DNA of 64,000 bases from a virus. The stretch is taken from positions 32,001 through 96,000 of the IMG/VR virus record IMGVR_UViG_3300044911_003339, one strand, 5' to 3'. Below the pieces are notes generated by a model. It saw nothing but the letters and a program-made list of their open reading frames with translations, had not been told where the DNA came from and searched no databases. Within the stretch, counting starts at the first letter, position 1, and every line of letters starts with the position of its first letter. Below, one piece after another: positions 2,937 to 63,294 of this stretch. The position numbers and the translations under genes were made by a program.

Positions 2937-4097
2937 ATGGGATTCACGTCGCAGGATGCGCTCATCAACGCGATTACGACGCTCGGGCAGTACGTGCGTC
3001 GTGAGGGCCAGAAGATCACCTCGCCAGCGCACACCGCGGGCGGCTGGCACATGCTCTTCGGCGGCGCGGGCTACCCGAACGCGACCACCTACCCAGCAGC
3101 CGCGGACCTCGTGTTCCAGGCGTGCACCGAGACCGGAGGCGACGCGGCCGGCGCGACGATTCTGGGGATGCAGCACGGAGGAGTTGTCGAGAGCGGCAGC
3201 GTCACGAAGCACCTTCTCAGCATGGCGGCCCTCGTCGTCGCGGCGGCCGGCGCGCCGTGGCAACTGAAGCTCGTGGACCTTCAGGGCTACTACCGCATCG
3301 CGACGACGAACCTCACAGGCACTGGCTCGCGCACGCTGATCAACACGAACACGTTCACCGCCGACGCGGGCACCGACCTCATCACGTACACGAACGACTG
3401 GTCGAACTTCACGAAGGTGAGGTTTACGACCACGACGACGCTTCCCGCAGGTCTCTCGCTCAACACGGATTACTGGCTCATCCGGCAGAGCACGACGACT
3501 GCGCGTGTCGCTTCGTCGCTCGCAGACGCCATCGCGGGCACGTACATCGACATCACCGACGCAGGCACGGGCACGCACACGCTCACCATCCAGATGCGCG
3601 AGCCGGACGGCGTGGGCTGCGAAGCTGCGTTCGTGATCCAGACGGCTCCTGCGACGGGAGGCCCGAACCTCACGGCGTCGAGCTACACGAACGCGGCCGG
3701 CGCGACCGGGCGTGCGTTCCAGGGCTCGCCGACCTTCGGCGCGGCAGCCGACGCCTACGCGACCCGCATCCCGCACTCGGGCAACGCTGCGGGCCGCTAC
3801 GGACCGTTCCTGCCGAAGCAGGGCGGCGACACGGGCATCCGATCGATCCAGAGCTTCACGCTGAGCGGCGGCACCGCCTACACCGGCACGGGTGTCGCTG
3901 CGCTCACGATCGTCAAGCCGCTCGCCGATATCATGGTGCCCGTCAGCGGTGCGTACTCCGAGCGCGATCTCGTGAATCAGGTGATGTCCCTACCGAGGAT
4001 TCGCGATGGCGCATGCCTTGGCTGGATGATGTTCTCGACGGGCGCGACGACGAGCAACTCGCCTGTGAACACGGTAATCGACGCCGCGTGGGGGTGA
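2937..4097 (+). CDS. Putative virion protein with inserted beta module
   Basis: SD GAGG; paralog of the preceding gene plus insert (LPAGLSLNTDYWLIR..RVASSLADAIAGTYIDITDAGTGTHTL). Confidence 0.7.
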   Translation: MGFTSQDALINAITTLGQYVRREGQKITSPAHTAGGWHMLFGGAGYPNATTYPAAADLVFQACTETGGDAAGATILGMQHGGVVESGSVTKHLLSMAALVVAAAGAPWQLKLVDLQGYYRIATTNLTGTGSRTLINTNTFTADAGTDLITYTNDWSNFTKVRFTTTTTLPAGLSLNTDYWLIRQSTTTARVASSLADAIAGTYIDITDAGTGTHTLTIQMREPDGVGCEAAFVIQTAPATGGPNLTASSYTNAAGATGRAFQGSPTFGAAADAYATRIPHSGNAAGRYGPFLPKQGGDTGIRSIQSFTLSGGTAYTGTGVAALTIVKPLADIMVPVSGAYSERDLVNQVMSLPRIRDGACLGWMMFSTGATTSNSPVNTVIDAAWG

Positions 4098-4100
4098 ACC

Positions 4101-5255
4101 GTGGCGCTCATCCGCAACGGCGTGTCGCTCAACTCGAATCCGATGCGCGTCGGGGGAGGACCGAACGTCAACTCGATCAACCGACCCATCGGGCCGGGCG
4201 CGCAGCGTGGCTTCTACGCAGGCGAGGGCACGGTCGTCAGCGGAGCATCGATCGCCGACACGGCGGCGTTCCCCAACGGCTACGAGGGCGGGACAGCGTG
4301 GCTTCTCGCGCCCCGAGGCGGCGGTCTCTCCGCCTACACGACGTTCACGCACCCGAACGTCGTCACCGCGGCGCTCGCCTCGGGCATCAACATCGGGGCG
4401 ACGCTCACGTCAGACGGCACGATCACGACCGCTGCGATTCAGGCGCTCGCGAATCTCGTCTCTACGCTCACGGCGAACGGCGCGGTCACGACCGCGGCGA
4501 TCACGACTCTCTCGAATCTCGTCGCGTCGCTGACGGCGACGACCACAGTCACCGCTGCGATTCAGGCGCTCGCGAACCTCGCAGCAACACTCACGGCTGA
4601 CGGCTCGATCTCGAACGCAGAGCTTTCACTCGTCGTCGGGCTCGCGTGCTCGATGGTCTCCGACGGTTCGATCTCGACGGCGAACCTGAAGCTCGTCGTC
4701 GGAATCGTATGCGCCATGCTCTCCGACTGCGGCGTGAGCGGCACCCTCACCGCTCCGGCCAACCTCGCGGCGACGCTGCTCGCATCCAACAACGTGACGG
4801 GTGCGCTCTCTGCTCTGAGTAATCTGATCTGCGAGATGACCGCGAACGGATCGCTCGTCGCGTCGCTGCGAGGCACTCTGAGCATGAGCGCTGTGCTCAC
4901 GACTGCCGGAAGCTCGACGGACGCTCCCACGCCAGCGGAGATTGCTGTTGCCGTCTGGCAGTACGTCCTGAGCGGTGTGACGGCAGGCGACCGCTTGTCG
5001 GAGGTCACCGCGGCCCGGATGTCGCTGCTCTCGACCGAACTCGACCCCTCGCTGTCCGGCAGCACGGCGGCGCAGATGGTGCTCGCGCGGAAGATCCTGC
5101 ACAATCGCCTGGAAGTGGACATCGGCTCGCAACGGCTGGTGCTCTACGACGACGACAACACGACCGTGCTGAAGCGCTGGCCGCTCCAGACCACCGGAGG
5201 CGAGCCGGTCACCACCTCGCCTGGTGTGCAGACGAAGAGAAGGGCTCCGACGTGA
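4101..5255 (+). CDS. Ala/Thr-rich repeat virion protein (fibre/appendage-like)
   Basis: About eight 20-21 aa repeats; C-terminal NRLEVD..LVLYDDD.TTVL..W.L motif typical of phage virion proteins. Confidence 0.65.
   Translation: MALIRNGVSLNSNPMRVGGGPNVNSINRPIGPGAQRGFYAGEGTVVSGASIADTAAFPNGYEGGTAWLLAPRGGGLSAYTTFTHPNVVTAALASGINIGATLTSDGTITTAAIQALANLVSTLTANGAVTTAAITTLSNLVASLTATTTVTAAIQALANLAATLTADGSISNAELSLVVGLACSMVSDGSISTANLKLVVGIVCAMLSDCGVSGTLTAPANLAATLLASNNVTGALSALSNLICEMTANGSLVASLRGTLSMSAVLTTAGSSTDAPTPAEIAVAVWQYVLSGVTAGDRLSEVTAARMSLLSTELDPSLSGSTAAQMVLARKILHNRLEVDIGSQRLVLYDDDNTTVLKRWPLQTTGGEPVTTSPGVQTKRRAPT
4398..4915 (+). repeat. Degenerate ~60-63 nt coding tandem repeat
   Basis: Protein repeats such as ATLTSDGTITTAAIQALANLV; exact 26-nt repeat accgctgcgattcaggcgctcgcgaa at 4428 and 4551. 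Confidence 0.7.
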
Positions 5256-7552
5256 AGATTCGCAAGTCGATCACACAGGGGCTCAACGAGGTCGGCGGGC
5301 AGGTCTCTCAGGGCCTCAACGTCGGTGGCGCGGTCCCCGCCTCAGAACCGGCAAGCACGGGCTTCGTGCTGATCCAGGAACCGGCGCGGCACCCGAGTCG
5401 CCGGTTCCCGCACATGCAGACCGAGAGGCTTCGTCGCCTCGCGGAAGCAGGACTCGGCGAGACGCAGCGCTTCGTGCGCAGAATCTCGCAGACGGAGGAA
5501 GAGGGCACGCGCCCCGCTCCTCACGTCCTCTCGCCCGAGGACGTGACGCGACAACTGGGAGTGCCGCTCGACCTCGAACAGAAGATTCACGCCATCGTGC
5601 GTGAATCGATTCCTCCGAGCGACGGATCGAAGATCGTGGACGTGAAGCGCTTCGGCAGCGCTCGAACGCGACTCCTCGACTTCATGCGGAGACAGAAGGT
5701 CACCCTCGACTCGGACCTTCGCGCAGAGATCATGCGTCGCGCCCTTCACTACTGGCGAGCAAACTTCCGCGTCGATTACGGACGCACCCCGGAGATGCGC
5801 ATGGGCAAGGCACTGGTGATCCCCAAGCAGCGCTTCGTGCTCATGAAGGGCCCGAAGGTAGAAGCCCCTGGCGCGAGCCCGACGGGTCGAGTCTCGATGC
5901 ACCCGATGCACGTGGACGCGTCGTCGGGGAAGGTCGGCCACAAGTACATCGCGCGCAAGCCCGATGGGCATGGCGGCTGGCTCTACAAGTACCCCGGCGA
6001 CACCGAGTTCCGCCCCGGCGCGGGAATCGAAGAGGGGCACACGCAGGCCCCCGAGGGCGCGCACCTCGGCGTGCACGAGAGCGGATTCCGCCCGACGCAC
6101 GAGCGCCACGCGGACGGTGGGCACACGTTCCACTTCGGAGAGGACGTGTCCGCCCACATCCCGGCCAACGCGGACCGCGAGCACCACCGGAAGGAGCACG
6201 CGAAGCACGGGGCCGCCTACAAGAAGGCGATGGCCGAGGGCAACGAGGAGAAGGCCAAGGGGCACCTGCGCGCCTACCAGATGCACGCCGAGGCCCACAA
6301 CCGCGCCCTCTCGGCCGAGCGCAAGGCCGCGAAGACGGGCATGGCTCCGCCAGGGCACGGGCTGCCTCCTGACGTGGGCAGTCAGGTCGAGGGCAAGCCC
6401 CAGAAGCAGCCCCCCGGAGCAGGCGGTCCTGCTACGATGCCCGGTGCCCCTGGCGGCTCTCCAGGCCAGCGACCTCCTACGCAGGGCGGGATGGCCGCTG
6501 GGGGCGCTCCGATGACTCCTGGGGGCGCAGGGGAGCCCCCGCAGGGCTTCGCAGCCCGCACGCCTCCCGGAGCCGACGTGGGGCAGTACCGCCAGCATCT
6601 CCAGGCCGCGAGCGACGCGATGTCGAACCTCGCGGCGACGCATGCGCACGTCGCGGACCTCGACGCCCGCATCAAGACCGTGAAGGCGGATCGCTCGCTG
6701 CACCCGCGCATGAAGAAGCAACTCGCGGCGCAGCTACAGGCGGAGAAGGCGCAGGCGGAGCTTGACCGATTCCAGCACGAGGACGCGCACGACGCGGCCA
6801 TGGAGCAACTGAAGTCGATTCACTCCGCGCTCCGAAAGGAGAAGCTGAAGCACCACCCGATCGTGAAGATGATCGACGGGCTGCTGAAGCTCATGCAGAG
6901 CTTCGCGTCGAAGATGGGCCACGGGCCGAACCCGAAGGGCGAAGAGGGCGCGAGCCCCAACGAGCGCCAGCGGGTCGTGGACTTCTACAGCGCCCGTTCC
7001 GACGCAGCCGGCGAGGCGAAGGCCGGCGCAGGCGGCGAGGAGTTCAAGCCACGCGAGCGTACGCTCTCGCTGCGCGCTCCCACCGACACGGGCGGAGCCA
7101 AGCCCGTCGGAGAGAATCCCGCTGCGAGCCCCGCGACCCTCGCACAGAAGCGCGAGGCTCCGAAGACGGCGGCGAGCGACAGCACGTGGGACGCGGACCT
7201 CGCGAGCGCGAAGGCGAAGCGTGACGAGACCGAGCGTGCTGCGAGTCAGGCTGGCGACACGTGGCGGAATCGCCAGATCGCGCAGGGCAAGGACACGCAG
7301 GGCATGCTGCGTGAGCAGCTTCGCGCTCCCACGGAGACCTCGGAGGCCAAGACGGCAGCGCCGAAGCGCCCGACTGCGGCGGGCACGGTCGCGCCGCGGA
7401 AGCGGGCCGCGAAGTCGGCGACCGAGGCGGACCTCATCGATCTCCGCAAGGCGCTCGCGCTCGCGCACGAGGGCCTGCGTGAGACCGCGCTGACCGACAA
7501 GCGAATCGTCTTCACGCCCCCGACCGAGCGCCGCGTGCGCCTGGAGTGGTGA
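5252..7552 (+). CDS. Large low-complexity putative internal head protein with HKY tag
   Basis: Overlapping GTGA start; GHKYIARKPDGHGGWLYKYP motif, His-rich helix, Pro/Gly linker, coiled coil, K|[AGS] sites. Confidence 0.7.
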   Translation: MKIRKSITQGLNEVGGQVSQGLNVGGAVPASEPASTGFVLIQEPARHPSRRFPHMQTERLRRLAEAGLGETQRFVRRISQTEEEGTRPAPHVLSPEDVTRQLGVPLDLEQKIHAIVRESIPPSDGSKIVDVKRFGSARTRLLDFMRRQKVTLDSDLRAEIMRRALHYWRANFRVDYGRTPEMRMGKALVIPKQRFVLMKGPKVEAPGASPTGRVSMHPMHVDASSGKVGHKYIARKPDGHGGWLYKYPGDTEFRPGAGIEEGHTQAPEGAHLGVHESGFRPTHERHADGGHTFHFGEDVSAHIPANADREHHRKEHAKHGAAYKKAMAEGNEEKAKGHLRAYQMHAEAHNRALSAERKAAKTGMAPPGHGLPPDVGSQVEGKPQKQPPGAGGPATMPGAPGGSPGQRPPTQGGMAAGGAPMTPGGAGEPPQGFAARTPPGADVGQYRQHLQAASDAMSNLAATHAHVADLDARIKTVKADRSLHPRMKKQLAAQLQAEKAQAELDRFQHEDAHDAAMEQLKSIHSALRKEKLKHHPIVKMIDGLLKLMQSFASKMGHGPNPKGEEGASPNERQRVVDFYSARSDAAGEAKAGAGGEEFKPRERTLSLRAPTDTGGAKPVGENPAASPATLAQKREAPKTAASDSTWDADLASAKAKRDETERAASQAGDTWRNRQIAQGKDTQGMLREQLRAPTETSEAKTAAPKRPTAAGTVAPRKRAAKSATEADLIDLRKALALAHEGLRETALTDKRIVFTPPTERRVRLEW

Positions 7553-54303: not shown

Positions 54304-54815
54304 TGATTCGTGCCTTGCAGGTTGCCGTCCTGTGTTGCGTGGCGGCGTTCACCCCCCTGTCGCATGCTCGGGCGCAGGACGGCAACCTGCAAGGCACGGG
54401 GCCCGCGCAGACGCCCCCAGGAAGCCCGGAGAGCACCGAGCCGCGTGGAGAGGTCGTCTTCCTCCCTGCGGGCCGGCCAGCCCCCTTCGCGGGCTTCCTC
54501 CTGGAAGGGCAGGATCTCGCGCGCTGGCGCTTCCACATCGAGACCCTGGAGTACCGGCTCGCGCGAGACGCCGAAGCCGCGGCTGCTCGGCTCGACGTGC
54601 TGCTCGGGATGGAGCGCGCCCGCACGAGCGCGGCCGAGGAGAGGCTCACGCTCCGCGACACGCTCTGGCAGCAGCGCGTCGAGCAGCTTGCTTCAGAGCT
54701 TCGGGAGGCGCGGCGTGCCGTCGAGCGCGGGTGGTGGGAGAGCCCCGCTCTCTGGTTCGCGATCGGCATGGTCGTCGCTGGCGGTGCTGTGATCGGAATC
54801 GCCGCCGCTCTCTGA
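54300..54815 (+). CDS. Spanin-like protein (signal peptide, coiled coil, C-terminal TM)
   Basis: Signal peptide ..ARA|QD; G.PAPF.G.LL; WW....WF.IG C-terminal TM. Confidence 0.55.
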   Translation: MMIRALQVAVLCCVAAFTPLSHARAQDGNLQGTGPAQTPPGSPESTEPRGEVVFLPAGRPAPFAGFLLEGQDLARWRFHIETLEYRLARDAEAAAARLDVLLGMERARTSAAEERLTLRDTLWQQRVEQLASELREARRAVERGWWESPALWFAIGMVVAGGAVIGIAAAL

Positions 54816-55754
54816 GCGTGCGCGGATGTTCGCCAGCTTGACGGCCTCGCCGAACGCGGTGAAGGCCGCTCGCTCTTCCTCGGTCAGCGGATCCGCCATG
54901 GGGTCAACGTTGATCAGAGAGAGCGCGTGAACGACGCTCGCGTAGGGAGTTGCGAACGGCGGGGGCATCGGCGGAGGACTCTTCATCACGGTCTTGAACA
55001 TCCCCGGTGCCCCAGGTACCGGCTCCAGTTCGCGATCGTCGGGAAGCCGGAGCTTCCCCGCGTACTGCCGTACGTACGGACCGACCGACTTGGCGGCGAT
55101 GGCCTGAGTCAAGAGTCGCGCTCGGTAATCGCTGTCCAACTCTCCTGCGTAGCGAAGCATGCCAAGCTCGGTGCCGATCTCATCCAGCAGCCCGGCAGCG
55201 TTCTCGGCGAGCAGGCGGCGCAGATCCTCTTCAGCTTGATCGGGTTCGAATCCCGCAGGCACGGCCTCGCCGCGTCGCTTCCGCATGAAGGCTGCGAACG
55301 CGGTAGCGCTCATGGAGGCCGAGTGCGCGCCTTCCTTCTTGCTGCTGTGAGGTCCCAGCAAGAAGCTGCGCGCTCTGGTGCGCACATGCGTAATCGCATT
55401 GGCGCGCGAGACGTGCCAATCCAGACCGCGCTCACCCTCCACGAGACCGGCGAGCAGCTTGCCGCCGCCCTCCCACGAGAACGCCGCGGTGTACGAGCGA
55501 GAGCGACCGAGGGTCAGCACGAGGAAGGCGAGGTCTTCCTCAGGGTCGCCGTCGAGGAGTTTCACGGCGTTGAACCCGCCGATTCCTCTGAGCGTGAGAG
55601 AATCCAAGATCGTGACTTCTTCTCCGAACTCGGTCGCAATCTTGTGGAGGTGCTCCGCGCGCGTCCAGATCGTGATCTCTTCGCTGTAAGAGATTACCCG
55701 CTGCCGGACGTAGTTGAGAACGATCTCCAGGGTCTCTCTGTAGCTCTTGCCCAT
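54693..55754 (-). CDS. Hypothetical protein, the only convincing minus-strand gene; contains a baseplate-wedge-like motif
   Basis: SD AAGGAGAG before ATG 55754; LLDEIG.ELG..R..GE.D.DYR.RLL; its 3' end overlaps the + gene by 123 nt. Confidence 0.7.
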   Translation of the reverse strand: MGKSYRETLEIVLNYVRQRVISYSEEITIWTRAEHLHKIATEFGEEVTILDSLTLRGIGGFNAVKLLDGDPEEDLAFLVLTLGRSRSYTAAFSWEGGGKLLAGLVEGERGLDWHVSRANAITHVRTRARSFLLGPHSSKKEGAHSASMSATAFAAFMRKRRGEAVPAGFEPDQAEEDLRRLLAENAAGLLDEIGTELGMLRYAGELDSDYRARLLTQAIAAKSVGPYVRQYAGKLRLPDDRELEPVPGAPGMFKTVMKSPPPMPPPFATPYASVVHALSLINVDPMADPLTEEERAAFTAFGEAVKLANIRARSESGGDSDHSTASDDHADREPESGALPPPALDGTPRLPKL

Positions 55755-55888
55755 GCTCTCTCCTTACCCGATTACGACCCGCTCCTCTCCGGCCGGACTC
55801 TGGTGCTGGGATCGCGCGGAGCGCACAATGGGTCGGGCGAAATCCGAAGCGAAGCGCGGACACACGCCCCCCATTAGCCGCTCCGCGG

Positions 55889-55926
55889 CTTCAATCTGAT
55901 TCGACGTTAGGAGAATCAGATTGAAG
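55889..55926. repeat. Perfect 14-bp AT-rich inverted repeat
   Basis: CTTCAATCTGATTC-gacgttagga-GAATCAGATTGAAG. Confidence 0.85.
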
Positions 55927-55989
55927 GCTTCCCGGATCTCCGGGCGGAGGGGGTCAGACGAGTTGAACGCAGGTAGCTCTGAAGCGTGA

Positions 55990-56730
55990 GGCCCGCGGCG
56001 AGGTGTCTACGCTCGCCCGGCTCGTGTTCAGGATTCCCGGCTATACGAGTCAGCGAAGGGGTGTTGCTCCACACTGGGGTGGGGGGCGTTCGTTGCTCGG
56101 TCCTTCTCAGGACTTCGCATAGCGGCGATGCCGCCGCGCTCACGCGCGTCGAGGTGCCTTCCTCGATCCGGGACGCAGGCTCCGGTATGGCGGGGGTCCC
56201 CCAGTGCGCCGTCCACCACATCGACCCTGTACTGCTCCGCCGCGATTACCGCGGCAGTAGGGGAGGTCGGTCGCGACGCGACCTCACACGAAGAGGCCAC
56301 CTCTGCGGGATGGAAGTGCCAGGATGCACGCTGTTGCAAGGTCCCGCCTCTCGTCGTCGATGCGGCTGCTAGGGCTCGGCCCGATCTCAGCCTCGGCACG
56401 CATACGGCGTGCGCGTCACGAGGCACCGATGCCTCGCTCGCGGTGCCCTGCCAGGGACTACCCGCGAGCGAAGACCCTGGCCGACTTGCAGCCGAAGCGC
56501 AAGTCCTGCATCCTCTGAGGGTCCCGATCTCATGGTTCCTCCCACAGCACCCGCTGAACCCGGAGGCACCAACACGAAGCCCGGTGTGCCAGCACTGGGC
56601 TTCGGCGTTTCTGGGCTACGCGTAATCGTGTAAGACGGGCTTGCTCCCGAGCGTGCGAGTCCCGTAGACCGGCAACGGGCACAGGTCACGGCAGTCCGGC
56701 TCCACCACTGGTTCAAGTCCAGCGTGCGCT
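55990..56730 (+). ncRNA. Candidate large structured non-coding RNA or long structured leader
   Basis: No credible ORF; dense hairpins with G-U pairs on the + strand, one long-range helix and a T-loop near the 3' end. Confidence 0.4.
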
Positions 56731-56748
56731 CGGGAGCGCTACCCACAC

Positions 56749-58161
56749 ATGCGCGTCTTCGTCGGCAACTCCTGGGCGGAACTCATGGGCGCGAGCCCGA
56801 GCTTCCTCGACTCGTGCACGAGGCACCTCGCGGTCTCCCTCGGGGACGATCCAGGGCCGGGCGCGAAGGTCGGTCACCGCTTCGGCGCGCTCTTCTGGGC
56901 GACGCACCAGGGGCAGCGCACGCTCTGGGGCTCGCTGCTCCACGAGAGGCGTCGCGTGGCCTCGGGGCTCGTGCCGTGGGTCGAGGCCCTCGCGCGGCAC
57001 TACGGCGAGCCGATCGAGATCGTCGAGTGCCGCCGCCGCCCCGAGTGCGAACTGCCGATGTGGTCGATCAGCGGCGTCTCGTGGAGGCCGTACCAGGACG
57101 CGGTGCAGAAGCAGATTCTTCTGCATGACCGCGGGGTCGTCGCTGCCCCGCCTCGTTCCGGCAAGACGCTCATGGCCGCGCGTGCGTTCGACGCGATCGC
57201 GCAGCCGTGCCTCTGGCTCGTGCCCAGCCTCGCGATCGGCCGGCAGACCTACACCGTGCTGAAGAAGCACTTCGGGGCCGACTTCGTGGCGCGTCTCGAC
57301 GGCGAGGCGAGCCGCGACGAGCGCGACATCGAGAAGAGGCTCGTCGTCTCGACGATCCAGTCGGCGCTCTCGCAGAGCCCCGAGTGGTTCAAGACGCGCA
57401 AGATGCTCGTCATCGACGAGTTCCATCACGCAGCGGCGGAATCCTATCATCGCCTCAACGCGCTCTGCGAGCACGTCTACTATCGACTGTGCTGGACGGG
57501 CACGCACTTCCGCACGGGAGAGGACGCGCTCGCGATGCACGCGATCTGCTCGACCGTGCTGCACAAGATCGAGTTCGATGACCTCGTGGCCGAGGGCTTC
57601 CTCGCGCCCGCGCGCGTGCTCTTCATGCAGCCGCGAGCGCCCGCTCCGATCTTCACCGACAACCGCTGGATGCAGGTCTACCAGACCGGAATCGTCGAGT
57701 GGGAGCCGCGCAACGCGATGATCGCGTTCACCGCGCGCACGCTCGACGCGAGCGGCGTCCCGACGATCGTGCTCACGCGCCGCCGCGCGCACGCAGAAGC
57801 TCTCGCGAAGATGATCCCCGGCGCGCAGGTCGTGCTCGGCGGAGACGGCGCGCTCCTCTCGCGAGCGATCGCCGACTTCAACGACGGCGTGACGAACGTC
57901 CTGGTCGGCACGCAGGTGATCGGCGAGGGTGTGGACGTTCCTCGCGCCGCAGCGCTCATCTACGCGGCAGGCGGCAACGAAGGGGTGCAGCAGATGCAGA
58001 GCTACTACCGACCGCTCACGGCGTTCCCTGGCAAGAAGATCGGCCTCATCTACGACTTCCAAGATTCCCAGCACGGCATGCTCAACGCGCACGCGCGCTC
58101 TCGGCAGCGCATCACGGCAGAGATCCTCGGCGAGAAGGCTCTCGTGCGGGTGGAGCGATGA
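56749..58161 (+). CDS. SF2 DEAD/DEAH-like DNA helicase (UvsW-like)
   Basis: RPYQ, APPRSGKT, VIDEFHH, TGT, GEGVDVP, Q...R.L....K. Confidence 0.9.
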   Translation: MRVFVGNSWAELMGASPSFLDSCTRHLAVSLGDDPGPGAKVGHRFGALFWATHQGQRTLWGSLLHERRRVASGLVPWVEALARHYGEPIEIVECRRRPECELPMWSISGVSWRPYQDAVQKQILLHDRGVVAAPPRSGKTLMAARAFDAIAQPCLWLVPSLAIGRQTYTVLKKHFGADFVARLDGEASRDERDIEKRLVVSTIQSALSQSPEWFKTRKMLVIDEFHHAAAESYHRLNALCEHVYYRLCWTGTHFRTGEDALAMHAICSTVLHKIEFDDLVAEGFLAPARVLFMQPRAPAPIFTDNRWMQVYQTGIVEWEPRNAMIAFTARTLDASGVPTIVLTRRRAHAEALAKMIPGAQVVLGGDGALLSRAIADFNDGVTNVLVGTQVIGEGVDVPRAAALIYAAGGNEGVQQMQSYYRPLTAFPGKKIGLIYDFQDSQHGMLNAHARSRQRITAEILGEKALVRVER

Positions 58162-58829
58162 GCGCCGACCTGCTCGCGCGCTACGACGCTCTCTGCCAGG
58201 AGCACGGCGTCTACTCGGGCAAGCGCAGCCTCTCGCGATTCCGTGAGCCGATGGAGCACTACGCAGCGTGGTGCGCGGAGAGGCAGATCGACCCGAAGCT
58301 CTTCATGCGATTCCGGTTCGAGCAGGCGCTCGCGCGGCACAAGGCCGCACCGAGCATCAAGACGCTCGTGAGCGACGACTCCGCGCAGGAGTACCTCCGC
58401 ACGGAGGCAGGCGCGTCCCTCGCGGTGTTCGAGCAGACCGTGAAGCCCGTCTACGATCTCGTGGGGCCGGGCAACGGACGAATCTACTCGCTCGTGCGAG
58501 ACGCGATGTGCGCGCCCGAGCCCTACGTCGAGCGCTTCCGGCACCAGCAGGTCTCGACTGGCAGGGCGTGGGCGTGCCGCTCCGAGCGCCTCAGGTTCGG
58601 AATCGGGTATGACCCTCGGAGCAGCGTGTGTCCTCGCTGCCCCGAGGCTGCTCTCTGCGCGCAGCAGACGAGCGCGGAGATCGGCTTCGACATCACAGCG
58701 CTACGCCGAGGAGACTTCGACTTGCTCCCTGAGATTCCCAAGAAGGTCGCACGCCACAGCTCGGAGCTTCACGCTCTCGTGAAGCAGGGCTCCGCTGCTC
58801 GCCGCCGCGCAGCACGGAGGCTCGCATGA
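58158..58829 (+). CDS. Hypothetical replication-associated protein with C-terminal Cys cluster
   Basis: ATGA-coupled between the two helicases; C...Y.P.S..CPRC....C. Confidence 0.7.
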   Translation: MSADLLARYDALCQEHGVYSGKRSLSRFREPMEHYAAWCAERQIDPKLFMRFRFEQALARHKAAPSIKTLVSDDSAQEYLRTEAGASLAVFEQTVKPVYDLVGPGNGRIYSLVRDAMCAPEPYVERFRHQQVSTGRAWACRSERLRFGIGYDPRSSVCPRCPEAALCAQQTSAEIGFDITALRRGDFDLLPEIPKKVARHSSELHALVKQGSAARRRAARRLA

Positions 58830-60169
58830 CCTCGCTGTCGGAGTTCGGAATCGACTTCCAGCGCGCCATCGTGCGGCTCGCGCAGGTCGATGACGCGTTC
58901 GCCTACCGCGCAGTGAAGCACGTCGAGCCCGGCTTCTTCTCGATCGAGCCTCTCGGCTGGTTGTGGAAGGGAATCCGCGCGCACGTTGAGGCGTACCGCA
59001 AGCCTCCATCGGACCTCGTGCTCAACGAGTGGCTCCGCACGCTGCCCGGCGACAAGCAGCCGGTCTACGCGCCCGAGGTGTACGCGGTCCGCACGCTCGG
59101 CGAGGTGAAAGACTCGGAGTACGTGAAGCACAAGCTCCGCGACTTCCTTCGTCGGAATCTGTTCGCGACCGCGCATCGAGAGAGCGCGCTCCTCTTCAAC
59201 GAGAACAAGTTCGACGAGAGCTACGACGTGATGGCGAAGGCGCACGACGCCATCGCGACGCTGGATTTCGAGATCGTCGATCGCCAGTGGTTCTTCGACG
59301 AGGTGAGCGAGCGCCAGCACTCGCGCGCTCTCGCAGCGATGTCGTTCGAGCAGAACTTCACGACGGGCGTGACGATGCTCGACAGGATCTCCGAAGGTGG
59401 CGTGAAGCTCGGCGAGGTCTGGTCGATTCTGGGCTACGCGAAGCGCGGCAAGACCACGTGGTTGATCAACCAGGCGTTCGGAGCGACGCGCGTGCATCGC
59501 GCTCCCACGCTCGTAATCAACATGGAGGGCAAGGGCTCTCAGTGGGCCGACAAGCTCGACGCGTGCTTCTCACGCGAGTTGTACTCCAACGTGAAGCGCG
59601 GCCAGATCGATCCCGTGCTCTGGCGCGAGATGCACGCGGAGTACCTCGGGCTTCGTCGTCTGCTCGTAATCCGCACACGCAACGAGTGGGACACGAACAT
59701 CCTCGACATCCAGGCGGAGATCGACGAACTGCGCGCGCAGAACTTCAAGCCGCGCATGCTGATCGTGGACTACATGGATCTCGGCCGCTCGCGTGACCGC
59801 GTGGATTCCGAGACCGCGCACCAGATCGCGTTCGGTCGCGACCTGAAGCGGCTCGTCGTGAACGAGGAGATGGCGTGCTGGACCGCGTGGCAGGCGCAGC
59901 GCCCGAAGGCCGACGCGAACGTGCGCGAGCACATCATCACGTCCGGCATGGTGGCCGACGCCTACGCGAAGGTGCGCATCGTGGACGGCTTCGGATCGAT
60001 CAACGCGACCGATGAGGAATGGAAGCGCGGCCACGCGCGCCTCTACTGGGAGAACTACCGCGACGCTGCGGTCAACGAGACCTTCTGGCTCCAGAACGAC
60101 CTCGCGCGCATGCGAATGGCGGTCGCCTCTGGTGCAGGCGTAGACCCGAGCACGATGGGGCATCCATGA
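58826..60169 (+). CDS. DnaB-like replicative helicase
   Basis: TG...LD....GG...GE, G.AKRGKT, NMEG, LIVDYMD, WTA.Q.R. Confidence 0.88.
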   Translation: MTSLSEFGIDFQRAIVRLAQVDDAFAYRAVKHVEPGFFSIEPLGWLWKGIRAHVEAYRKPPSDLVLNEWLRTLPGDKQPVYAPEVYAVRTLGEVKDSEYVKHKLRDFLRRNLFATAHRESALLFNENKFDESYDVMAKAHDAIATLDFEIVDRQWFFDEVSERQHSRALAAMSFEQNFTTGVTMLDRISEGGVKLGEVWSILGYAKRGKTTWLINQAFGATRVHRAPTLVINMEGKGSQWADKLDACFSRELYSNVKRGQIDPVLWREMHAEYLGLRRLLVIRTRNEWDTNILDIQAEIDELRAQNFKPRMLIVDYMDLGRSRDRVDSETAHQIAFGRDLKRLVVNEEMACWTAWQAQRPKADANVREHIITSGMVADAYAKVRIVDGFGSINATDEEWKRGHARLYWENYRDAAVNETFWLQNDLARMRMAVASGAGVDPSTMGHP

Positions 60170-60615
60170 GACCGCTGATCTTGGAAGACGGGCAGCAGGA
60201 TCGCTTCGCAGAACACGTGAAGCGCGTCATGAGCGCGCTCTGGGTTGACACGACCGATTACGAAATCGACGCGCACCTTCGGCAGACGTGCGCGCAGTGG
60301 CTCGACGGCACGACCTGCGACATCGTGATCGCGCGCGAGTCCCTGGACAACGGAGATGTCCGGCTGGACGTGGACTTCCGCTGGAGGGTCGGCACGCCCC
60401 TTTCCGGTGCGAGTCTCACCGGGGAAGGGCCCATCGCGGGCGTCTCCTTCGCATTCGATCGTGAAGGTCCCGTCATCAAGTTCCGATTCTTGCGCAAGGG
60501 CTGGGAGTCCCGCAGCTTCGCCCCCTCCACCTCCTCGCTGCCGCTCGACCACACCAAGCTCTCGAATCGCGACTTCGCCAAGCTCATGCGCGAGCGCAGG
60601 AGCGGCGGTCGATGA
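60166..60615 (+). CDS. Hypothetical protein
   Basis: ATGA coupling on both sides. Confidence 0.65.
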   Translation: MRPLILEDGQQDRFAEHVKRVMSALWVDTTDYEIDAHLRQTCAQWLDGTTCDIVIARESLDNGDVRLDVDFRWRVGTPLSGASLTGEGPIAGVSFAFDREGPVIKFRFLRKGWESRSFAPSTSSLPLDHTKLSNRDFAKLMRERRSGGR

Positions 60616-61670
60616 GCAACGTGCGCAGGGCGCTCGCGCAGTTCGACGCGCACGCGTTCGTGCGCAAGCATGGAGGCCGGAAGGAATCCAGTTCGGCGCT
60701 CTCGCAGGAGTACCTGCTCAACTGCCCCGCGTGCGGCTCGTCGCGTCTGCGCTGGAACGCAGCGAAGAAGCAGGGCGCGTGGACGTGCTGGGGCTGCCAT
60801 CGCTCCGGCGACACGCTCTCGCTCGTGAGGCTGCTCGAACGCACGACCGACATGGGCGCGATCGACTTCGTGATGCAGGGCTACGTCGGAGGAGACCAGC
60901 CGACGAACCTCGAACCGCTCGGAATCGTCGCGCCTCGCGCGCCCCAGCGCGCCACCGTGAAGCACCTGCCCGCGATCTCGTGGCCTCACGGTGTGGACCT
61001 GCTCGCGCCCGTGCCTGCTCACGCACGAGCGTTCGATTACCTGCGAGGTCGAAAGCACTTCGGCGTGGACCCCGCGCTGCTCGCGCCGCATCGCGTCGGC
61101 TTCGGTCGCTCGGGCCGCCTCGACGGCTACCTCGTGTTCCCGTGCTGGATGGACAACGGGCTCGCCTACTGGCAGGGCCGCGCGACGTGGGACCCTCCCG
61201 CGGGCACCGACGAAGAGGTGCGCGCGTGGAAGGAGAGCACGGGCTACCGCAAGACGCTGAACCCCGTCGCGGTGCCCGGAGCGGCTACGGCGAGCGACGT
61301 GATCTTCGGCTTCGATCACGCGCGCACGGCCGAGCACGTCGTCGTGTGCGAAGGTCCCTTCGATGCCGCGCAGATCGGAATCCCTTCGACGGCGGTCGCG
61401 GGTGTCGCGCTGCTCGGGAAGGCGTGGAGCGATCAGAAGCTCGCGCGCCTCGCACGCCTCCCGGCACGACGCGTGACCGTCTACCTCGACCGAGGTCGCG
61501 ACGAGTGGGAATCCGCGTGCCGGCTCGCCGCCGCGCTCTCTCCCTACGTGGAGACCTACCTCGCGGTCCCTCCCGAGGGGTGCGATGCCGGATCCCTGAC
61601 CCCCCAGCACAACGCGGTCGTGCTCGCGCACGCCACCCGGTACGCGGGGCAGGCCCTCCAGGGCGTCTGA
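60612..61670 (+). CDS. DNA primase (Zn finger + Toprim)
   Basis: CPAC..CWGC, YL.GR, FP....G...WQGR, VCEGPFDA, LLGK, VYLD, DAG. Confidence 0.88.
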   Translation: MSNVRRALAQFDAHAFVRKHGGRKESSSALSQEYLLNCPACGSSRLRWNAAKKQGAWTCWGCHRSGDTLSLVRLLERTTDMGAIDFVMQGYVGGDQPTNLEPLGIVAPRAPQRATVKHLPAISWPHGVDLLAPVPAHARAFDYLRGRKHFGVDPALLAPHRVGFGRSGRLDGYLVFPCWMDNGLAYWQGRATWDPPAGTDEEVRAWKESTGYRKTLNPVAVPGAATASDVIFGFDHARTAEHVVVCEGPFDAAQIGIPSTAVAGVALLGKAWSDQKLARLARLPARRVTVYLDRGRDEWESACRLAAALSPYVETYLAVPPEGCDAGSLTPQHNAVVLAHATRYAGQALQGV

Positions 61671-62990: not shown

Positions 62991-63230
62991 ATGAGTCTGG
63001 CTTTCCGATACAGCCTGCGGGCGATCGAGGTCCGCTGCGGTTCGCGCGTCTGCGCGCTCGCAGTGGACTCGGGATTCACTGGCGCGAGCCTCGTGCTCAC
63101 GAGCGGCGAGGATTGGGTCTGCCTCTGGTACGAGACCCTGGACGCCGCGGCCAAGGCCGCCGCGGACTACCTCGTCGTGTTCGCGACGCACCTCGAATCG
63201 AAGGCGACGCTCCCCGCGTTGCCGCGCTGA
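62991..63230 (+). CDS. Small hypothetical protein
   Basis: SD AAGGAGG. Confidence 0.6.
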   Translation: MSLAFRYSLRAIEVRCGSRVCALAVDSGFTGASLVLTSGEDWVCLWYETLDAAAKAAADYLVVFATHLESKATLPALPR

Positions 63231-63232
63231 CC

Positions 63233-63279
63233 GCGCGTGTGGTGACAGCCGAGGTTCGACTCCTCGGCCGCGCATTCCA
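63233..63279 (+). ncRNA. tRNA-like top-half (acceptor + T-arm mimic), not a complete tRNA
   Basis: GCGCG..GCCGAGG-TTCGACT-CCTCGGC-CGCGC-ATTCCA. Confidence 0.5.
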
Positions 63280-63294
63280 ACAGGGAGGGATTCA

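Follow-up and report, generated by a model that had tools for sequence, protein, structure and literature searches.

A gene-free gap of 994 nt (55755-56748), with late (tail and baseplate) genes on its left and replication genes on its right, raises the question of what this phage genome keeps between its two gene sets: a large folded RNA, a DNA element of replication, an operon boundary or the remnant of a gene. The genome is that of an uncultured lake phage, and the window (the whole stretch of DNA analyzed, 64,000 nucleotides) comprises bases 32001-96000 of a 105,161-bp IMG/VR record, which is rated complete (CheckV) and in which no end repeats were found. Lake water was the main source of runs with near-identical sequence, alongside wastewater, marine plankton, and biofilm samples. 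Nearly all genes of the phage lie on the + strand. The last of the tail and baseplate genes and small ORFs of unknown function ends at 54815, and a lone gene against the + strand (54693-55754, - strand) encodes a 353-aa protein with no Pfam match, integrases included. The replication module opens on the + strand with an SF2 DNA helicase (56749-58161), assigned as UvsW/D10-like by Pfam and PHROG matches and follow-up comparisons (E 5e-7) and unlike T5.108; an unknown 219-aa ORF separates it from a DnaB-like helicase (58826-60169), and a primase is found at 60612-61670, all on the same strand.

A constrained non-coding stretch

Three metagenomic relatives were recovered via the helicase gene, namely L002/L007 (99% helicase identity), L006 (91%), and L003/L008 (73%). 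A Logan search additionally yielded contig P0002, encoding a helicase at 79% identity, and about 100 other helicase contigs. Comparison of the window with L002, L006, and L003 indicated that about 850 nt (55776-56621) are non-coding, the longest such stretch in the 105-kb genome, as the initial annotation had proposed in calling it the only long non-coding gap. The same annotation had described the region as ORF-free, which is literally incorrect, since stop-free frames of 100-211 aa occur on both strands of the gap, as expected at 66% GC. Its non-coding character was nevertheless borne out: GC by codon phase is flat over approximately 55860-56520 (GC3 of the helicase gene is near 0.9), substitutions relative to L006 are spread evenly over the codon phases (27/28/27, compared with 35/117/19 in the helicase gene), and indels relative to L003 are mostly not multiples of three, so that every frame is broken and none is conserved in that relative. 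Pfam and PHROG searches of the gap returned no protein-family match. By periodicity, frame conservation, and family matches alike, the gap is not a protein-coding gene. The only other long stretch with flat GC phase, at 4.8-5.5 kb of the genome, proved to be a proline-rich coding repeat.

The gap is 98.3% identical to that of L002 and 88% identical to that of L006, values that equal or exceed the identity of the helicase gene (25% divergence at third codon positions). In the alignment with L003, blocks of 11-26 nt are invariant and the sequence between them is little shared; these blocks, together with several hairpin loops, stay unchanged at an identity of about 60% elsewhere. The eight blocks, read on the + strand, are GGACACACGCCCCCCATT (A), CCGGCTATACGAGTCAG (B), GTGGGGGGCGT (C), AGGTGCCTTCCT (D), TCCGGTRTGGCGGGGG (E), CTCTGCGGG (F), GTGCAAGRTCCC (G), and AGCCTCGRCACGCATMCGGCGTGCGC (H). 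Such conservation, together with a metatranscriptome contig over 56042-56385 that is identical to the window in a run whose gene contigs differ by about 2%, shows that 55776-56621 is under purifying selection.

Conserved hairpins and their limits

The region had been described as densely structured, with the caveat that high GC inflates chance hairpins. The folding z-score proposed as a check proved moderate: the minimum free energy (MFE) z was -2.3 on the + strand and -0.8 on the - strand for the span first outlined (55990-56730), -3.9 and -2.7 for the core (55808-56520), and -5.0 and -6.7 for the diverged L003 core. The best 350-nt window of the region ranked 12 of 299 in a GC-corrected whole-genome folding scan, which is no extreme outlier and justifies the caveat. 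By energy alone the structure is thus moderate, whereas by comparison it exceeds chance. The alifold consensus energy was -216 kcal/mol, against -184 +/- 7 in 40 column-shuffled alignments, and the collection of homologues likewise proposed in the initial annotation revealed 36 compensatory pairs, against 19.9 +/- 3.8 in 40 column shuffles (maximum 29), in a set of four sequences, two of them near-identical, that has no power for R-scape-type statistics. Each of the two values lies about 4 sd beyond its column-shuffled control, and the number of compensatory pairs dropped to 3-8 when the partners were slid by 1-3 columns. In the reliably aligned comparison of the window with L006, all eight double-changed pairs still pair, with about 1.3 double changes expected by chance.

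The form of the changes suggests the nature of the folded molecule. A constant UCUC loop is carried by GGUCCU-UCUC-AGGACU in the window, GAUCCC-UCUC-GGGAUU in L006, and GCGCACC-UCUC-GGUGCG in L003; a constant UGCCUU loop is carried by UCGAGG-UGCCUU-CCUCGA in the window and GUCAGG-UGCCUU-CCUGAC in L003; an AUACG loop is likewise conserved over a varying stem, and a CGCGC/GCGCG stem of the window is swapped for CCCUC/GAGGG in L003. Stems that vary under constant loops are the opposite of what is expected of a double-stranded operator or protein-binding palindrome, and therefore point to a folded single strand.

All the helices named in the initial annotation were present in the sequence at their given positions, and several gained comparative support: GGCGAG/CTCGCC has a G-C pair that is replaced by A-U in both L006 and L003, GTCCT/AGGAC has changed compensatorily around its constant UCUC loop, and compensatory changes were also found in the 12-bp stem at 56575-56604 (in L006) and in the 15-bp stem closing a downstream T-loop element (in L006). 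GCACGC/GCGTGC is invariant, and CGAGGCA/TGCCTCG (56419-56436) gives way to another hairpin at that site in L003. The long-range helix AGGATGCA/TGCATCCT was rejected on the L002 and L006 alignments, since it carries an uncompensated change in L002 and its 5' arm is absent from L006. Among changed predicted pairs, 67% still pair in L006 and 52% in L003, and two of the helices that enclose the central hairpins do not vary or are partly disrupted; a single integrated, "ornate" fold of 55790-56612 is therefore at most a possibility. What can safely be stated is that the stretch is an array of about a dozen conserved hairpins accompanied by invariant unpaired blocks.

Organization of the element and of the adjacent tRNA-like leader

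The conserved element extends over 55790-56612. The span of 55990-56730, presented initially as one region, starts about 200 nt too far to the right and mixes two units, the second of which, the T-loop element, is set apart by a promoter-like motif. At the left limit of the gap, a promoter-like motif on the - strand, GTAATCGGGTAAG (55763-55775), lies directly upstream of the SD/ATG of the 353-aa gene, an arrangement shared with L002 and L006. The invariant CCGGCCGGAC (55789-55798, + strand), identical in all four sequences, forms the 5' boundary; to its left the sequences differ, with antisense genes in the window, L002, and L006 and none in L003, where the last late gene stops about 50 nt before the conserved stretch and no promoter intervenes. 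This boundary on the left, and a terminator-like hairpin preceding a promoter motif on the right, delimit the large element. Scans at its 5' end found neither the phage promoter motif nor a sigma-70-like promoter.

Read on the + strand, the element begins with a 5' hairpin domain (55816-55886, alifold helices 2-4) that contains block A (GGACACACGCCCCCCATT, 55860-55877), invariant in all four sequences and carrying a C6 run perfectly complementary to an invariant G6 run at 56080-56089. A 14-bp hairpin with a conserved loop follows at 55889-55926 (MFE z -7.3); its arms have changed in L006 and yet remain perfectly complementary, and L003 has a different, longer hairpin there. The hairpin at 55979-56031 (helix 11) includes the GGCGAG/CTCGCC stem with its G-C to A-U changes in L006 and L003. 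The central multi-hairpin domain (56031-56204) holds blocks B, C, D (as a hairpin loop), and E, and its covariance model, R1, scores 205 bits in the window, 194 in L006, and 127 in L003; three of its hairpins account for 10 compensatory pairs and are 100% paired, and two of the helices enclosing them (1 and 2) either do not vary or are partly disrupted. A hairpin of variable length (56225-56262) is reduced by a 24-nt deletion to a 5-bp stem in L006 and replaced on the same base by a different hairpin in L003. The 3' domain (56269-56471, alifold helices 21-29) comprises blocks F, G, and H and hairpins at 56396-56412, 56419-56436, and 56434-56471; the apex at 56441-56462 is wholly different between near-identical strains, a hairpin being formed in each. 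The GACTTGC/GCAAGTC hairpin (56483-56505, helix 30) is conserved in the window, L002, and L006 and partly kept in L003. It is followed by a hypervariable linker (56506-56572), which is replaced in L002 and in the X9 contig between flanks that are 98% identical.

The proposed 3' end (56575-56612) consists of the terminator-like 12-bp hairpin at 56575-56604 (MFE z -4.6) and the following GCGTTTCT. A consensus terminator scan did not call this hairpin because its T run is too short, the tail GCGUUUCU having at most three consecutive U. Its counterpart in L003 is a strong hairpin that directly precedes a promoter motif. In the window the promoter-like motif GTAATCGTGTAAG (56622-56634, + strand) lies after the 12-bp hairpin and 114 nt before the helicase ATG. 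The motif, CGTAATCG[TG]GTAAG, has 12 copies in the genome, each facing a gene and situated just upstream of it, and several of the other copies are likewise preceded by a terminator-type hairpin. These copies are confined to 88.6-105 kb and 0-27 kb of the genome, and the putative helicase promoter is therefore the first after the late region.

Downstream of this motif, the T-loop element (56643-56737, + strand; MFE z -3.3) is a unit separate from the large element and forms a tRNA-like leader of the helicase mRNA. Its closing stem of 15 bp, two of them G-U, encloses a junction containing a T-arm mimic, CUGG-UUCAAGU-CCAG (56708-56722). The sole SD-like GGGAG before the ATG at 56749 lies on the 3' side of this stem, and the stem can mask the ribosome-binding site of the helicase mRNA. 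L002 and L006 both keep the element, with compensatory change: in L006, a U-A pair of the closing stem has become C-G, and an A of the T-loop has become G, which stays within the T-loop consensus. It is absent from L003, where the promoter motif lies about 10 nt ahead of the helicase start codon.

Several identities were considered for this leader. ARAGORN found no tRNA or tmRNA genes in the genome, and the Rfam comparison of the element gave tRNA-Sec at 16.4 bits (gathering score 47); with only the T-arm and the long stem fitting, a tRNA or tmRNA was rejected. YrlA and mascRNA are tRNA-like or tRNA-mimic RNAs, and a YrlA-type RNA was likewise rejected, with no Rfam call and no TROVE match in the 105-kb genome, although control genomes were detected. 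An attP site or tRNA fragment seems less likely, given the closed stem-junction structure and the neighboring 353-aa gene, which lacks a Pfam integrase match. The likeness to viral tRNA-like structures (PMC10690425) concerns 56643-56737 only and consists of the T-arm with its UUCRAGU loop stacked on a long terminal stem. From known tRNA-like leaders and mimics the element differs in having no anticodon arm, no Rfam or ARAGORN call, and no Ro/TROVE partner, and in being missing from L003.

A candidate large RNA and its alternatives

At a probability of about one half, 55790-56612 is best explained as a candidate folded non-coding RNA of about 0.8 kb, specific to this clade and read from the + strand. 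It would be transcribed rightward, like nearly all genes of the phage, from the interval that follows the last late gene and precedes the first gene of the replication module, and would end at the 56575-56604 hairpin, after which the promoter-like motif would start the helicase transcript. Its hairpins would pack into a multi-domain particle acting in trans, as is thought for GOLLD and ROOL, with the invariant loops and blocks serving as its contact or recognition surfaces. Transcription of this stretch, function of the + strand, and a trans-acting particle are inferred.

The context favors the + strand, namely the direction of the genes, the U-containing terminator-like tail, and the promoter motif after it. 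Pairing statistics also favor it, weakly. The MFE is better on the + strand by 15-34 kcal/mol in all four sequences, and the alifold energy is slightly better as well. G-U outnumber A-C combinations by 24:14 in the window, in weak agreement with the earlier observation that mismatches are mostly G-U on the + strand, but the ratio is reversed in L003 (21:27). The union of the predictions for both strands gave 85 G-U and 68 A-C, and transitions to G-U and to A-C showed no asymmetry in noGU-predicted pairs. Both strands of the core fold better than shuffles, and in L003 the z of the minus strand is stronger than that of the plus strand. A metatranscriptome contig of 344 nt covers 56042-56385 with no differences from the window, and the gene contigs of the same run differ by about 2%; its depth is low and equal to that of the gene contigs, DNA carry-over is possible, and strand and ends cannot be read from it.

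Rfam 15 cmscan gave no match at the gathering score in the window and no match in the relatives, and the GOLLD and ROOL covariance models had no match up to E=10 in 55500-57000. The statement that the RNA cannot be assigned to a family is thus upheld, and, with no Rfam family fitting, "novel" is a fair description. No further homologues were detected among 50,697 phage records by blastn or megablast. The nhmmer profiles of the core and tail, together with R1, recovered only the three close relatives among 72 IMG/VR helicase-relative loci, where the best other match scored 19.7 bits (E 0.02). A fuzzy search for co-occurring motifs found none, pattern scans of IMG/VR viral contigs returned the same two contigs only, and those of 185,579 species genomes gave either nothing or four chance 18-mers. 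Pattern matches in L079-L086 and L091 were rejected as chance, the other blocks being absent nearby. At the same position, directly upstream of the helicase, relatives at 35-53% helicase identity have 0.5-1.5 kb of sequence that shows little coding potential and folds with MFE z of -2.8 to -6.5 (helicase-gene controls, 0.2 to -1.9). Those of L012 and L070 are 73% identical over 460 nt, with substitutions by phase of 52/47/45, that is, without codon periodicity, and contain hairpins. These stretches appear to be positional analogues, non-homologous as far as detectable.

The candidate RNA would be most comparable in kind to GOLLD and ROOL (PMC5737381, PMC12286853), with which it shares a length of several hundred nucleotides, many hairpins, conserved unpaired blocks, and carriage by phages. 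GOLLD and ROOL often occur near tRNAs (PMC5737381); here a tRNA-like element follows, in a genome without a true tRNA gene. The candidate differs in matching no Rfam model and in having four members within one narrow phage clade, and its covariation lies in local hairpins, with long-range helices weakly supported in the four sequences, in contrast with the multi-junction pseudoknotted fold of GOLLD and ROOL. A retron or DGR RNA found no support, an RVT_1 match being absent from the genome.

Among the alternatives, the one that survives best, though we regard it as unlikely, is a cis-acting replication or regulatory element of the helicase/DnaB/primase module, such as an origin, or an R-loop or primer-type transcript or single strand with hairpins, whose strain-variable apices set specificity. 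The replication module starts directly after the stretch, with a UvsW/D10-like helicase; structured analogues (z -2.8 to -6.5) occupy this position in relatives at about 50% helicase identity; shuffled sequences fold less well than either strand; and the hairpin apices are hypervariable between near-identical strains. As an origin, however, the gap contains no iterons, tandem repeats, or direct-repeat family beyond chance, no DnaA box, and no AT-rich dip (GC 0.63-0.69 throughout), and the helicase is not of the T5 origin-binding type. In T5, a 470-nt gap (59074-59544) lies between an annotated promoter and T5.108, an origin-binding helicase, and is therefore a leader, whereas the large element described here lies upstream of the promoter motif and of a terminator-like hairpin, so that it is not the helicase leader, and is adjacent to a D10/UvsW-like helicase. 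ColE1 RNA II and the T4 oriF/oriG origin transcripts are structured RNAs of R-loop or primer type that serve replication functions. The candidate RNA resembles them in being structured and located beside replication genes, and its loop variation recalls incompatibility determinants; their antisense partner, promoter, R-loop, RNase H processing, and origin are unmatched in the element.

Somewhat less probable again is an operon junction, in which the stretch would be the long structured 3' tail of the late transcript, with stability hairpins, processing sites, and terminators insulating the late from the replication operon. The L003 stretch, starting about 50 nt after the last late stop codon with no promoter between, is in line with this, as are the terminator-like hairpin at the end of the element, the terminator-then-promoter punctuation common in this genome, and the strong backing of local hairpins as against the weak backing of long-range helices. 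A row of simple terminators or stability hairpins would nevertheless have no need for 11-26-nt blocks and loops that stay invariant at about 60% identity, which argues for more than a junction; the stretch is also 850 nt long and matches coding sequence in its degree of conservation. That the stretch holds a packaging signal or the physical genome end, such as a cos site or terminal-repeat junction, seems very improbable: the position at the late/early boundary, with the helicase promoter the first after the late region, would suit it, but the assemblies of the record, L002, L003, L006, and the X9 contig all run through the stretch, end repeats are absent from the record, and compensatory stems with conserved loops are unexpected of terminase-binding DNA. 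A decayed gene, or chance hairpins due to high GC, to which the long stop-free frames and the folding energy unexceptional after GC correction would correspond, is largely refuted by the absence of codon periodicity and of any frame shared with L003, by conservation equal to that of a functional gene, and by compensatory changes in excess of shuffled and slid controls.

Large phage-borne structured RNAs are a known kind, of which the candidate RNA would be a new family. Few bacterial and phage RNAs of more than 500 nt with conserved structure are known, and these (GOLLD, ROOL, OLE, raiA) assemble in an unexpected way, from RNA alone (PMC12286853). In the most extensive IMG/VR survey published, all reported candidates were 29-151 nt long and each was seen in three or more regions (PMC10690425); that survey would therefore have missed an element as long as this one. 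A broader reading, which we advance tentatively and consider rather doubtful, is that the element, about 0.8 kb long, founds a class of folded phage RNAs of its own and is the version, in this lineage, of a wider and so far undescribed habit, among tailed phages of about 100 kb, of opening the replication module with a large structured RNA; this RNA would act in the initiation or control of replication, with strain-variable apices setting its specificity. Even if untranscribed, the stretch would be non-coding DNA under strong constraint where the late and early genes of an uncultured phage group meet, and would call for a different explanation. If transcribed and folded, it would add a new large RNA and, taken with the positional analogues, would suggest that phage replication modules begin with an RNA component.

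Variation within and beside the structured element

Two short segments of the structured element (window 55790-56612), at 56441-56462 and 56506-56572, differ completely from strain to strain, against 98% identity elsewhere; this was observed when the window was compared with its close relative L002 (99% helicase identity) and with a contig from sequencing run X9. The first segment forms the apex of a hairpin, and all variants still form a hairpin there.

The region to the left of the element is also variable. It is occupied by a lone antisense gene of 353 aa (window 54693-55754, minus strand), which is preceded by a promoter motif of its own and by a strong SD, and which overlaps the 3′ end of the plus-strand gene ending at 54815. 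L003 (73% helicase identity) lacks this gene, L002 has part of it replaced, and L006 (91%) carries an unrelated antisense gene in its place. The site looks like a moron insertion hot spot adjoining the structured element. In addition, a single contig of the lake-water DNA run X3 has position 54662 seemingly fused to 56854 via 33 unrelated letters; it would come from a relative in which the antisense gene, all of the structured stretch and the beginning of the helicase gene are missing.

Structured stretches in distant relatives and other T-loop hairpin

Relatives at approximately 50% helicase identity carry their own structured non-coding stretches directly 5′ of the helicase gene, with folding z-scores against shuffled sequence of -2.8 to -6.5; these include loci L012 and L070 (both 3030-3490), L013 (2920-3490), and L017 (2650-3400). 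Similarity to the structured element of the window was undetectable in these four stretches, and in L012, L070, and L017 the absolute folding energy was better on the minus strand.

Besides the T-loop element of the helicase leader (window 56643-56737), a second small T-loop hairpin, GCCGAGG-UUCGACU-CCUCGGC, is present at window 63225-63290, a 66-nt stretch that did not fold better than its shuffles (z 0.14). Outside the window, genome positions 4800-5470 show a flat GC-phase profile that could be mistaken for non-coding DNA, because they hold a proline-rich, low-complexity coding repeat of the PPPPAP type.

A promoter-like motif

The genome contains 12 copies of a 13-14 nt motif, CGTAATCG[TG]GTAAG, all located upstream of a gene start and pointing at the gene. 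Two lie in the window, at 55763-55775 (minus strand) and 56622-56634 (plus strand, 5′ of the helicase gene); the other ten are on the plus strand at genome positions 679, 3182, 10051, 16105, 19669, 21511, 23820, 23996, 27206, and 100087. Most copies stand a few to approximately 60 nt from the start, and the helicase copy 114 nt. The late (structural) region, at approximately 27-87 kb, is devoid of copies. No T7-type RNA polymerase was found, in a search that lacked a valid control. CGTAATCG[TG]GTAAG is likely a phage-specific promoter for early and replication genes.
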